A stretch of 64,000 nt of DNA, from the NCBI RefSeq assembly GCF_003334405.1, contig NZ_QOWM01000007.1; one strand, given 5' to 3'. Each line of letters begins with the position of its first letter. Within the stretch, counting starts at the first letter, position 1. This document shows, piece by piece, positions 22,307 to 33,703 of this stretch. The position numbers and the translations under genes are program-made. This stretch comes from Escherichia coli. Its GTDB lineage: Bacteria; Pseudomonadota; Gammaproteobacteria; Enterobacterales; Enterobacteriaceae. A model generated the notes under the pieces. That model searched no databases and was not told the origin of the DNA. It was given only the letters and a program-made list of their open reading frames with translations.

Positions 22307-22389
22307 CTTTTTTCTGCTTAACTTAACCAGACAATCACACAAAAGAGTCGCTAGTGGAAAAGCCATTTCGAAAAATCCTGGTCATAAAG

Positions 22390-23424
22390 ATGCGATATCA
22401 CGGAGATATGTTATTAACTACTCCTGTAATCAGTACACTCAAGCAGAATTATCCCGACGCAAAAATCGATATGCTGCTTTACCAGGATACAATTCCGATT
22501 TTATCTGAAAACCCAGAAATTAATGCACTCTATGGTATAAGCAATAAAGGTACGGGAACATTCGATAAAATTAAAAATGCACTTTCACTGATAAAAACTC
22601 TGCGTGCGAATAATTACGACCTGGTCATTAATCTTACGGATCAGTGGATGGTGGCCCTGCTGGTACGTTGTTTACCTGCTCGTATGAAAATATCGCAGCT
22701 TTATGGTCATCGGCAGCATGGCATTTGGAAAAAAAGCTTTACACACTTAGCGCCTATACACGGTACACATATTGTTGAGCGTAATTTGTCGGTCCTTGAG
22801 CCATTAGGTATTACCGATTTTTATACTGAAACAACCATGAGTTACGCCGAGGATTGCTGGAAGAAAATGCGCCAGGAATTAGATGCACTGGGCGTGAAAG
22901 ATCATTATGTCGTCATCCAGCCGACAGCCAGACAGATATTTAAGTGCTGGGACAACGATAAATTTTCTATGGTTATCGATGCGTTGCAACATCGTGGTTA
23001 TCAGGTTGTGCTGACTTGTGGCCCTTCGGCAGATGATCTCGCTTGCGTAGATGAAATTGCACGAGGCTGCCAAACAAAACCTATTACCGGCCTTGCCGGT
23101 AAAACACGTTTTCCTGAACTGGGCGCATTAATTGATCATGCAGTGCTCTTTATTGGTGTGGATTCTGCGCCGGGGCATATTGCAGCGGCTGTGAAGACGC
23201 CAGTTATTAGCCTGTTTGGGGCCACTGATCATGTATTCTGGCGTCCATGGACCGAGAATATTATTCAGTTCTGGGCGGGGAATTATCAAAAAATGCCTAC
23301 CCGGCACGAACTTGACCGCAACAAAAAATATCTTTCTGTTATTCCAGCGGAAGATGTCATTGCCGCTACGGAAAAGCTGTTGCCAGAAGATGCACCTTCA
23401 GCTGACAGGAATGCGCAATTATGA
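22390..23424 (+). CDS. waaQ: LPS core heptosyltransferase III (GT9), 344 aa from the ATG
   Basis: Translation recognised as WaaQ; ATG at 22390 gives the 344-aa reference length, but the upstream GTG at 22354 would add MEKPFRKILVIK, which resembles the conserved GT9 N-terminal strand, so the true start may be 22354. Confidence 0.88.
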   Translation: MRYHGDMLLTTPVISTLKQNYPDAKIDMLLYQDTIPILSENPEINALYGISNKGTGTFDKIKNALSLIKTLRANNYDLVINLTDQWMVALLVRCLPARMKISQLYGHRQHGIWKKSFTHLAPIHGTHIVERNLSVLEPLGITDFYTETTMSYAEDCWKKMRQELDALGVKDHYVVIQPTARQIFKCWDNDKFSMVIDALQHRGYQVVLTCGPSADDLACVDEIARGCQTKPITGLAGKTRFPELGALIDHAVLFIGVDSAPGHIAAAVKTPVISLFGATDHVFWRPWTENIIQFWAGNYQKMPTRHELDRNKKYLSVIPAEDVIAATEKLLPEDAPSADRNAQL

Positions 23425-24545
23425 TCGTGGCATTTTGCTTATATAAATATTTTCCATTTGGTGGGCTACAGCGTGACTTTATGCGTATTGCCTCAACAGT
23501 TGCCGCACGGGGCCACCATGTTCGGGTATATACACAGTCGTGGGAAGGCGATTGCCCGGAAGCATTTGAGCTTATTCGCGTACCGGTTAAATCCCATACT
23601 AACCATGGACGTAATGCAGAATATTATGCCTGGGTTCAAAACCATCTGAAGGCACATCCCGCTGATCGCGTTGTTGGCTTTAATAAGATGCCTGGGCTGG
23701 ATGTTTATTTTGCCGCCGATGTCTGTTATGCCGAGAAAGTGGCGCAAGAAAAGGGATTTTTCTATCGTTTAACATCGCGCTATCGCCATTATGCTGCATT
23801 CGAGCGAGCGACTTTCGAACATGGTAAATCGACGAAACTTATGATGTTGACCGATAAGCAAATCGCCGATTTTCAGAAGCATTACCAAACTGAACCAGAA
23901 CGTTTTCAAATTCTTCCCCCTGGTATCTATCCTGACAGAAAATACAACGCGCAAATCCCAAACAGTCGTGAAATTTATCGCCAGAAAAATGGCATCACTG
24001 AACAACAAAACTTATTGCTGCAGGTTGGTTCAGATTTTGGTCGTAAAGGTGTGGATCGCTCAATTGAAGCTTTGGCATCGTTACCAGAATCGTTACGCCA
24101 TAATACGTTGTTGTTTGTTGTTGGCCAGGATAAACCGCGTAAATTTGAAGTGCTGGCAGAAAAACTCGGTGTGCGTAGTAAAGTGCATTTCTTTTCCGGG
24201 CGGAATGATGTGTCTGAATTAATGGCAGCCGCTGATTTATTAATGCATCCCGCTTATCAGGAGGCTGCAGGTATTGTTCTCCTTGAGGCAATTGCCGCGG
24301 GATTACCTGTGTTGACGACTGCGGTATGCGGATACGCACACTATATCACAGATGCTAATTGTGGAACGGTCATCGCTGAACCTTTCTCCCAGGAACAATT
24401 AAATGACGTTTTACGTAAAGCGTTAACTCAATCTCCATTGCGCATGGCCTGGGCGGAGAATGCTCGGTATTACGCCGATACTCAGGATTTATACAGCCTG
24501 CCGGAGAAAGCGGCAGATATCATTACAGGTGGTTTAGATGGTTGA
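23421..24545 (+). CDS. waaG: LPS core glucosyltransferase I (GT4), 374 aa
   Basis: Translation [34 protein letters not shown]... recognised as WaaG. Confidence 0.95.
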
Positions 24546-25335
24546 ATTAGAAGAGCCACTTGCCACACTCTGGCGTGGTAAAGATGCCTTTGCAGAAGTT
24601 AAAAAACTGAATGGCGAGGTCTTCCGTGAACTGGAGACGCGTCGCACATTACGCTTTGAACTGGCCGGCAAAAGTTATTTCCTCAAATGGCACAAAGGGA
24701 CGACCCTAAAGGAGATTATAAAAAATCTGCTCTCATTGCGGATGCCCGTTTTAGGTGCAGACAGAGAGTGGCACGCTATTCATCGACTGCATGATGTCGG
24801 TGTTGATACGATGCACGGAATAGGATTTGGTGAAAAAGGGTTAAATCCATTAACTCGCACATCATTTATTATTACCGAAGATCTCACTCCCACAATTAGC
24901 CTTGAAGATTATTGTGCAGATTGGGCGGTCAACCCGCCTGATGTACATATTAAGCGTATGCTGATCGCGCGTGTGGCAACCATGGTGCGCAAAATGCATG
25001 CAGCAGGGATTAATCACCGTGATTGTTATATCTGCCACTTTTTACTCCATTTGCCATTTACTGGCCGGGAAGATGAATTAAAAATTTCGGTTATCGATCT
25101 GCACCGGGCACAGATACGTGCAAAAGTACCACGTCGTTGGCGGGATAAAGATTTGATTGGTTTATATTTCTCATCAATGAATATTGGTCTGACGCAGAGA
25201 GATATCTGGCGATTTATGAAGGTTTATTTTGGGATGCCTTTACGCGATATTTATAGACTTGAGATTGATTTACTTAAAAAGGCAAGGATTAAAGCAGGAA
25301 AAATAGAAGCAAGAACAATAAGAAAAAACTTGTAA
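24538..25335 (+). CDS. waaP: LPS core heptose(I) kinase, 265 aa
   Basis: Translation [16 protein letters not shown]... recognised as WaaP, with several substitutions relative to my recollection of the K-12 protein. Confidence 0.93.
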
Positions 25336-32432: not shown

Positions 32433-32451
32433 AAATTATTGGATTTGAAGA

Positions 32452-32487
32452 GCCTGCCTGAACTTAATGTCAGGCAGGCTTTTTTTT
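32452..32487. terminator. bidirectional intrinsic terminator between convergent waaK and waaL (9-bp stem GCCTGCCTG/CAGGCAGGC, 10-nt loop, 8 T)
   Basis: Perfect inverted repeat followed by TTTTTTTT on the plus strand and preceded by an A-rich tract; overlaps the waaL stop codon. Confidence 0.65.
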
Positions 32488-33703
32488 ATTTATTCCGCAT
32501 TGCTAACAGTAAACCAACAATCAAGCCAATTGGTTTGAGATCAACTTCCTCGAAGTTACCTCGAATAATATAAAAGCTTACAAGCGTTAAAAATAGTAGT
32601 AATTGACCATTATAAGGAGTGACGACAACTGTTTTAAACGTTGCATTAGCTGTCTCTTTGATAATAGAGCCATACAGATAAAGTAAAGCGAGTAGTCCAG
32701 CCAAACCCGCTGCAAACCAAATTGACAAAACAACGTTGTGTGGCCCAATGGATTGCCTGAACTTCCATGACGGAAAATCTACAACACGCTTATTATATAT
32801 TGCATGGTAAATATCATCGCCGTAGCCATATCCCTTAAGAGGATTTTCCATAATTAATGTCCACGCCGTACCTTGAGTACCATTGGTATAGCGATAAGAA
32901 CTGTCGGTCTGTTGAAGTTTATAAATAAGCCTGTCTTTACCAGCATGATCACCTTTATAGGTAAATACACCCACTGCGGCAACAGAAATAACGATGGAAG
33001 TCAGCATCAATAATTTCCACTGACGATTTAAGATTAACCATAGCAGAGTCACTATGAATACTGCCAGCCATGCACCACGAGACAGCGTTCCTAATAGCAG
33101 AAATAAGAAAACTGCACTAAAAATTACGAATGCTATTTTATAAGAGGTTTTCTTGATAAGCCAAAGGTTTAATAATGCTGGAAACAGAAACACCATTGAA
33201 TCGGAAATACTACGGTGTTCATAGGTGGAAAATGGCATTATTCCTTTATTATAATCCTGAATATAAAGAATAAGTTCAACAAGACAACGTAAGCCAAGTC
33301 CGGTAACTAATGAGTATAGTACAATTTTACCAATGCTTTCATTATCTTCATCTTTTAATAATGCAGGTATAAGTAAACTATAGGCCAAAAATCCTTTAAG
33401 TACCGTATTACTGAATTCTTTAAAACTGATTTTCAGATCAGGTGATATAAAAGTAGCATATAAAAGAATGAGTGATAGTGCCAGGACACTATAAAAAAGA
33501 TTATTTTTATAGAGTACTTTAAATGTTCCCGGAGCACGAGAAACTTGATAGATTACCGTAATAATCATTAGTATAGATATGATGTGTTTATAACGGGTTA
33601 TACCATCAAGGAAAAAGGTTGCAATAAAGAGGAATACCAACGCTTTATTCCAGTACGGTTTCCACTTTTCTTTATTACGTAGCGCCAGCGAGGCTGTTAA
33701 CAT
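32486..33703 (-). CDS. waaL: O-antigen ligase, 405 aa
   Basis: Polytopic membrane protein in the conserved slot convergent with the waaQ operon; length near Salmonella/R2 WaaL (K-12 WaaL is 419 aa); very AT-rich. Confidence 0.88.
   Translation of the reverse strand: MLTASLALRNKEKWKPYWNKALVFLFIATFFLDGITRYKHIISILMIITVIYQVSRAPGTFKVLYKNNLFYSVLALSLILLYATFISPDLKISFKEFSNTVLKGFLAYSLLIPALLKDEDNESIGKIVLYSLVTGLGLRCLVELILYIQDYNKGIMPFSTYEHRSISDSMVFLFPALLNLWLIKKTSYKIAFVIFSAVFLFLLLGTLSRGAWLAVFIVTLLWLILNRQWKLLMLTSIVISVAAVGVFTYKGDHAGKDRLIYKLQQTDSSYRYTNGTQGTAWTLIMENPLKGYGYGDDIYHAIYNKRVVDFPSWKFRQSIGPHNVVLSIWFAAGLAGLLALLYLYGSIIKETANATFKTVVVTPYNGQLLLFLTLVSFYIIRGNFEEVDLKPIGLIVGLLLAMRNK

Follow-up and report, generated by a model that had tools for sequence, protein, structure and literature searches.

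Which lipopolysaccharide (LPS) core is specified by a waa locus of Escherichia coli that shares flanks and gene order with K-12 but carries other genes at two places within it? The question is raised by a locus at 22354-33703 of a 64,000-nucleotide stretch of E. coli DNA (the window), comprising the central waa operon and waaL, the gene for the O-antigen ligase. With a probability that we put at about 95%, it is an intact, canonical E. coli R2-type waa (LPS core) locus. By the list of open reading frames (ORFs) it holds eleven intact genes, ten on the plus strand and waaL on the minus strand, in the order waaQ-G-P-wabA-B-O-J(R)-Y-Z-K with waaL convergent, the whole placed between waaA and waaC, and this is the order of an R2 locus. 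The first-pass annotation of this DNA, made from the sequence alone, had proposed that the order waaQ-G-P-(GT8)-B-O-J-Y-Z-K fits R2 (GT8 is glycosyltransferase family 8, to which the wabA product belongs); the ORFs lie where it placed them, and the RefSeq annotation of identical DNA concurs.

Core typing by polymerase chain reaction (PCR), suggested as a check and run here in silico, gives the same answer. The R2 primers of the LPSTyper set, which span waaZ-waaK, match exactly at 30774 (+) and 31383 (-), the R2-F primer site being 31363-31383, and define a 610-bp product as published; the R1, R3, R4 and K-12 primer pairs yield no product in silico, and the K12-F primer site is absent from the window. 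A 12-kb block that includes the locus matches E. coli 65COLEC at 100% identity, and there RefSeq calls the same genes and no pseudogenes. Of 5,426 complete E. coli genomes, 480 carry the block at 99% identity or more, and in 501 (~9%) its coverage reaches 80% or more. In PMC13293308, R2 accounts for 8.15% of 4,505 genomes and is the rarest among the five core types, and the agreement between the two frequencies supports the R2 call. Chance is not an issue, as the block is a conserved allele of some 500 genomes.

Two points weigh against so firm an assignment. Identity to the prototype R2 strains, F632 (GenBank AF019375) and F576, is indirect and comes by way of the primers, the gene names of the R2 set in PMC13293308, and Salmonella loci other than that of LT2; by these comparisons no difference from the R2 type was detected. 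Expression and enzyme activity in the source strain are assumed from the intact reading frames. The R2 core type itself is already known: it was described in 1998 (Heinrichs, Monteiro, Perry & Whitfield, J Biol Chem), its genetics, chemistry and frequency have been published, and the locus adds nothing new to it. Core type decides which O-antigens can be ligated, and influences both recognition by core-binding phages, colicins and antibodies and the classification of strains by core-based vaccines and typing schemes. The R2 assignment is useful metadata for this genome rather than new biology, and the only lead of some value concerns wabA and the cassette-like behaviour of the slot that it occupies.

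The features of the locus and its borders, with the evidence for each in parentheses, are as follows (K-12 identities at the amino acid level).

20670..21947, minus strand: waaA, transferase for 3-deoxy-D-manno-oct-2-ulosonic acid (Kdo), divergent from the central operon (ORF and RefSeq annotation of identical sequence)
22268..22306, plus strand: JUMPstart element with its ops site (GGCGGTAG, 22295-22302), in the waaQ leader (Rfam RF01707)
22354..23424, plus strand: waaQ, heptosyltransferase III (K-12 identity and RefSeq annotation)
23421..24545, plus strand: waaG, glucosyltransferase I, which adds the first glucose, GlcI (K-12 identity and RefSeq annotation)
24538..25335, plus strand: waaP, kinase of the first heptose, HepI (K-12 identity and RefSeq annotation)
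25368..26348, plus strand: wabA, a 326-residue GT8 glycosyltransferase (Pfam; in the slot of K-12 waaS)
26362..27441, plus strand: waaB, alpha-1,6-galactosyltransferase (NF007396, 593 bits against a cutoff of 385)
27441..28460, plus strand: waaO, transferase of the second main-chain hexose, a glucosyltransferase in K-12/R2 (88% to K-12 WaaO)
28624..29640, plus strand: waaJ (= waaR), alpha-1,2-glucosyltransferase, which adds GlcIII (90% to K-12, and RefSeq annotation)
29658..30356, plus strand: waaY, HepII kinase (92% to K-12)
30428..31237, plus strand: waaZ, KdoIII transferase, 269 residues (NF007333, 548 bits against a cutoff of 473)
31290..32432, plus strand: waaK, alpha-1,2-N-acetylglucosaminyltransferase of glycosyltransferase family 4 (GT4), 380 residues (NF012028; replaces K-12 waaU)
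32486..33703, minus strand: waaL, O-antigen ligase of the R2/Salmonella type, 405 residues (NF012031, 651 bits against a cutoff of 277)
33742..35748, minus strand: waaC and waaF, heptosyltransferases I and II (K-12 identity)
35828..36808, minus strand: hldD (rfaD), 326 residues (K-12 identity over residues 1-309)

The locus lies between waaA-coaD and waaC-waaF-hldD, and the remaining window is ordinary E. coli chromosome, xanP through rhs. G+C content falls from ~52% in the flanks to 29-42% within the operon, with its minimum over wabA.

How far, then, does the locus depart from K-12? The comparison locus is that of DH1 (K-12 waa locus MG1655/DH1), which shares the flanks and the order. The inner-core proteins had been taken as K-12-like and prove to be so, with amino acid identities of 98% for WaaQ, 96% for WaaG, 95% for WaaC, 99.4% for WaaF, 100% for WaaA over the part compared and 100% for HldD over 309 residues. 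The divergence suspected in WaaP (91%), WaaB (92%) and WaaO (88%) is real though modest; WaaJ is at 90%, WaaY at 92%, and WaaZ at 89% over its first 259 residues (269 residues against 283 in K-12). All genes that are shared with K-12 thus lie at 88-100%. Two blocks, by contrast, lack DNA homology to K-12, namely 25245-26361 and 31192-33799, and the second opens within the last codons of waaZ (breakpoint ~31192). Where K-12 has waaS, the GT9-family gene waaU and a 419-residue waaL, the window has the non-homologous wabA, the GT4 gene waaK and a 405-residue waaL. No homologue of waaS, of waaU or of the K-12-type waaL was found in the window, and the K-12 core type is accordingly not the one encoded.

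The terminal gene of the operon had been read as a GT4 enzyme with an EX7E motif, and this holds. WaaK scores 721.5 bits on the NCBIfam model NF012028, "LPS N-acetylglucosaminyltransferase" (cutoff 618), and the motif lies at residues 288-296 (EAFCMVAVE). The longest ORF of waaK begins at a GTG codon at 31248. That K-12 carries a GT9 waaU at this position is borne out by the DH1 annotation; among the proteins of the K-12 locus WaaK has no similarity to WaaU and a single match, of 26%, to WaaG. The ligase is likewise of another kind: WaaL belongs to NF012031 ("O-antigen ligase RfaL") at the score listed above, and it has no detectable match to the ligases of K-12, R1 or R4. Its length is 405 residues against 419 in K-12, as the first-pass annotation had noted.

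The locus might in principle combine K-12 waaS with R2 waaK, or R2 wabA with K-12 waaU, rather than be purely R2. K-12/R2 hybrids were described in E. coli in 2025 (PMC13293308); in addition, the locus of E. whittamii (L011) has an R2-type waaK and waaL without a wabA-type GT8, and the O127:H6 genome has waaK-waaL at just 91% identity. In the window, however, the three R2-specific genes stand together, each with 99% or higher identity to the allele of ~480 genomes, and there is no waaS or waaU sequence. Gene content refutes the hybrid, which we consider very improbable. Moreover, 503 of the 5,426 genomes have wabA and 501 have the R2 waaK-waaL block, and because these counts nearly coincide the window holds the usual combination of genes and not a rare K-12/R2 hybrid.

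An R3-type terminal pair (waaD with the R3 waaL) has to be weighed for a different reason. In the R3 locus, that of O157:H7, the terminal gene also encodes a GT4 N-acetylglucosamine (GlcNAc) transferase and the ligase is also of the RfaL type; their RefSeq product names, "lipopolysaccharide N-acetylglucosaminyltransferase" and "RfaL", are those used for the window as well, and WaaK and WaaL of the window are their homologues, with 57% identity to WaaD and 51% to the R3 ligase. Identity to the Salmonella proteins is nevertheless higher, 73% for WaaK and 65-66% for WaaL. The R3 order is Q-G-P-O-Y-J-D, without waaB, waaZ or a gene at position 4; WaaB and WaaZ of the window find no match in the R3 locus, and the R3 primers, as noted, give no product. 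Gene order and identities together refute an R3-type terminus, the probability of which is close to nil. The R1 and R4 loci have waaT and waaW plus either waaV (family GT2) or waaX (family GT25) and a ligase gene on the same strand. WaaK, WaaL, WaaB and WaaZ have no counterpart in either, the waaG region giving just partial matches of 26-27% to WaaK; the R1 and R4 primer sites are absent from the window, and neither R1 nor R4 describes the locus. WaaQ is at 73% amino acid identity to R1/R3/R4. The terminal gene is thus neither waaU nor one of the R1, R3 or R4 genes (waaV, waaW, waaX, waaD) with which the first-pass annotation had contrasted it.

Is the locus then "Salmonella-like rather than K-12-like", as that annotation had it? 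The comparison set consists of S. enterica subsp. diarizonae (L013) and the Salmonella contigs L022 and L026, with S. enterica subsp. enterica LT2 outside it. In gene order the likeness is close: L022 is collinear with the window (Q-G-P-GT8-B-I-J-Y-Z-K and a convergent L), and L026, a contig that begins at the GT8 gene, keeps the same order from there through L. The proteins of the Salmonella central operon are 55-86% identical to those of the window, and the second main-chain transferase of Salmonella is of the WaaI type, specific for galactose (Gal), as against the K-12/R2 WaaO type, specific for glucose (Glc), in the window. The description stands for wabA, waaK and waaL only, the products of which are 64%, 73% and 66% identical to their Salmonella counterparts; it fails for WaaB, O, J, Y and Z, which are 88-92% identical to K-12 and 55-70% to Salmonella (62-63% for WaaB).

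That wabA, waaK and waaL have counterparts in Salmonella and not in K-12, that the blocks holding them are low in G+C content and have sharp borders, and that the R2 system was termed a hybrid in the 1998 paper (by way of PMC13293308) might suggest a recent transfer of waaK and waaL, perhaps with wabA, from Salmonella into a locus of the K-12 kind. Against this, their 64-73% identity to Salmonella is the same divergence as the 55-70% of the neighbouring WaaB, O, J, Y and Z, proteins that are clearly vertical or K-12-like. R2-type loci occur in E. albertii, the R2-type waaK-waaL module occurs in E. whittamii, and the K-12-type WaaU and WaaL in turn have counterparts in Citrobacter, at 60% and 59% identity. 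With a divergence equal to that of neighbouring genes, and with cassettes spread over several genera, recent import from Salmonella is rejected as unlikely. The same two lines of evidence (R2-specific proteins as diverged from Salmonella as their neighbours are, and occurrences across genera) fit the view that wabA, waaK and waaL are old interchangeable cassettes that would have been maintained across genera.

Two loci outside Escherichia touch on this subject. In Citrobacter sp. GCA_950098555.1 (L024) a wabA-like GT8 gene at position 4 stands with a waaU-like GT9 gene and a K-12-type ligase gene, these last two being the source of the 60% and 59% identities to K-12. A Pseudocitrobacter-like contig (L032) has a wabA-like GT8 gene at position 4 and a waaU-like GT9 gene, without waaB. 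In predicted gene content both are of an "R2/K-12 hybrid" layout beyond Escherichia.

What core would the R2 locus be expected to produce? The long operon would be transcribed from a promoter at waaQ, with the JUMPstart/ops leader recruiting RfaH. The JUMPstart match is strong (RF01707, 53.1 bits against a gathering score of 35, E = 7.8e-10), and ops sites are carried by RfaH-dependent operons, to which RfaH is recruited for antitermination (PMC6358824). An Rfam scan at permissive threshold found nothing besides JUMPstart above its gathering score; matches to istR and the Leu leader near 19.2 kb were below threshold and treated as chance. WaaC, WaaF and WaaQ would add three heptoses, which WaaP and WaaY would phosphorylate. 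WaaG, WaaO and WaaJ(R) are predicted to build a main chain Glc-Glc-Glc (GlcI-GlcII-GlcIII), WaaB to add an alpha-1,6-Gal branch, and WaaK, a retaining GT4 enzyme, to cap GlcIII with an alpha-1,2-GlcNAc side branch, which an R2/Salmonella-type WaaL would require for attachment of O-antigen. WaaZ could add a third Kdo, and WabA most likely a non-stoichiometric, alpha-linked hexose (proposed to be Gal) on the Kdo branch.

The sugar linkages in this scheme and the dependence of the ligase on GlcNAc are carried over from published R2 work and are probable for the window to the extent that it follows R2. In R2 the terminal alpha-1,2-GlcNAc is added by WaaK and needed by WaaL (Heinrichs et al. 1998, cited through PMC13293308), and WaaZ adds KdoIII in both R2 and K-12 (PMC3526765). 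The R2 core oligosaccharide is Glc3-GlcNAc-Gal-Hep3-Kdo (Hep, heptose) with a terminal alpha-GlcNAc-(1->2)-alpha-Glc (PMC7504096). By their predicted activities, WaaG, O, J, B and K account exactly for this published composition. A main chain of the K-12/R2 kind, Glc-Glc-Glc, is predicted in preference to the Salmonella Glc-Gal-Glc because WaaB, O, J, Y and Z are K-12-like. RefSeq names WaaO "lipopolysaccharide 3-alpha-galactosyltransferase", a name that comes from its passing a Salmonella-based NCBIfam model. The WaaO of K-12 is a glucosyltransferase. With 88% identity to that protein as against 55-56% to the Salmonella counterpart, the RefSeq name is probably wrong on the sugar.

The remaining question is what WabA does. 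Its product is clearly of family GT8 (Pfam PF01501, E = 1.6e-49, together with PF08437); it matches the LgtC structures 1ss9/1g9r at ~6e-17, and of the DxD motifs of the family it has DCD (residue 127) and DQD (residue 210). K-12 WaaS shows no similarity to it, and its identity is 31% to WaaJ and 29% to WaaO. The gene has the lowest G+C content in the locus, 29-31%. The name wabA is that of the R2 GT8 gene in the 2025 typing paper (PMC13293308); the gene is a third R2-specific difference, on which the first-pass annotation had laid no stress. Between waaP and waaB, K-12 has a rhamnosyltransferase gene, waaS (PMC6358824), and R2 and many Salmonella and Citrobacter have wabA in that slot.

In S. 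enterica subsp. diarizonae (L013, 4067-5008) the same slot is occupied by a 313-residue ORF with no BLASTP similarity to K-12 WaaS, and the sole match to the R2 GT8 protein in that locus, at 30%, is at position 6260, inside a waaO/waaI-like gene. Judged by sequence comparison, the waaP-waaB slot is a swap site with at least three unrelated kinds of gene across enterobacteria. Its content also appears to assort independently of the terminal module, wabA being paired either with waaK and the R2-type waaL or with waaU and the K-12-type waaL. In every wabA-bearing enterobacterial waa locus examined, wabA is accompanied by waaZ.

As WaaG, O, J, B and K account exactly for the acid-released R2 core, WabA is left without a sugar in it, and this would be expected if the WabA product sits on the acid-labile Kdo branch. 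An entry under waaS in Table S13 of PMC13293308 mentions an alpha-1,7-Gal on KdoII. The waaS slot, the constant presence of waaZ, the independent assortment and this table entry all fit the Kdo-branch reading. In the R2 literature WabA reportedly has a Gal-on-Kdo role, and this, together with the table entry, is the basis of our proposal, to which we give even odds, that WabA is an alpha-hexosyltransferase (for Gal, as proposed) that decorates the Kdo branch and that the slot holds an interchangeable family of inner-core decoration genes. What tells against it is the 60%-identical WabA homologue in the Pseudocitrobacter locus, L032; because that locus has no waaB, WabA may instead have a role in the outer core.

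A further homologue of WabA, 46% identical, is found in Hafnia paralvei CP014031.2 (L027, 8001-8969) within a P2-like prophage, where it adjoins the tail-fibre and tail-fibre-assembly genes. This copy looks like a phage-borne LPS-modifying gene of the kind associated with lysogenic conversion, and it is possibly a receptor-masking gene.

Beyond the two blocks, the window differs from K-12 by extra inserts like the enterobacterial repetitive intergenic consensus (ERIC) at waaO-waaJ and hldD-waaF, and by the absence of yibB/htrL. In K-12 that gene (~1.28 kb) lies between hldD and kbl; here 62 bp, 36857-36918, stand in its place.

The insert between waaO and waaJ is an imperfect palindrome of 125 bp (28476..28600, plus strand), with ERIC-like ends and a different centre, which appears as an alignment gap in K-12. 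It is transcribed within the operon, immediately 5' of waaJ, and its RNA is predicted to fold at -42.6 kcal/mol (z = -4.1). It is found in 498 of the 5,426 genomes, and since this is close to the number of genomes with the R2 block, it looks like a marker of the R2 lineage. The possibility that it is a multi-copy repeat was rejected: at megablast sensitivity there is one copy per genome, and the window has no second copy.

Short contigs of two metagenome-assembled genomes, one of a Flavihumibacter sp. (L003, 2.7 kb) and one of a Bacillota bacterium (L004, 3.9 kb), carry waaZ-waaK-waaL with WaaK and WaaL 99.7-100% identical to those of the window and WaaZ at 95.5% (L003) and 100% (L004); these waa genes are almost certainly E. 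coli contamination or the result of mis-binning.

The second insert, between hldD and waaF (35749-35880, minus strand), is an ERIC (also termed intergenic repeat unit, IRU) element with the core GTGAATCTCCGGGAGCTTACAAAAGTAAGTGACCGGAGTGAACG. In K-12 the hldD stop codon is merely 9 bp from the start of waaF; in the window the element takes the place of the final codon and the stop codon of hldD, and HldD consequently has 326 residues as against 310, with a 17-residue foreign tail. A match of this element to the Rfam family V_AS5 (29.7 bits against a threshold of 96) was treated as chance. As RNA the element is predicted to form a long hairpin of -48.5 kcal/mol (z = -5.6).

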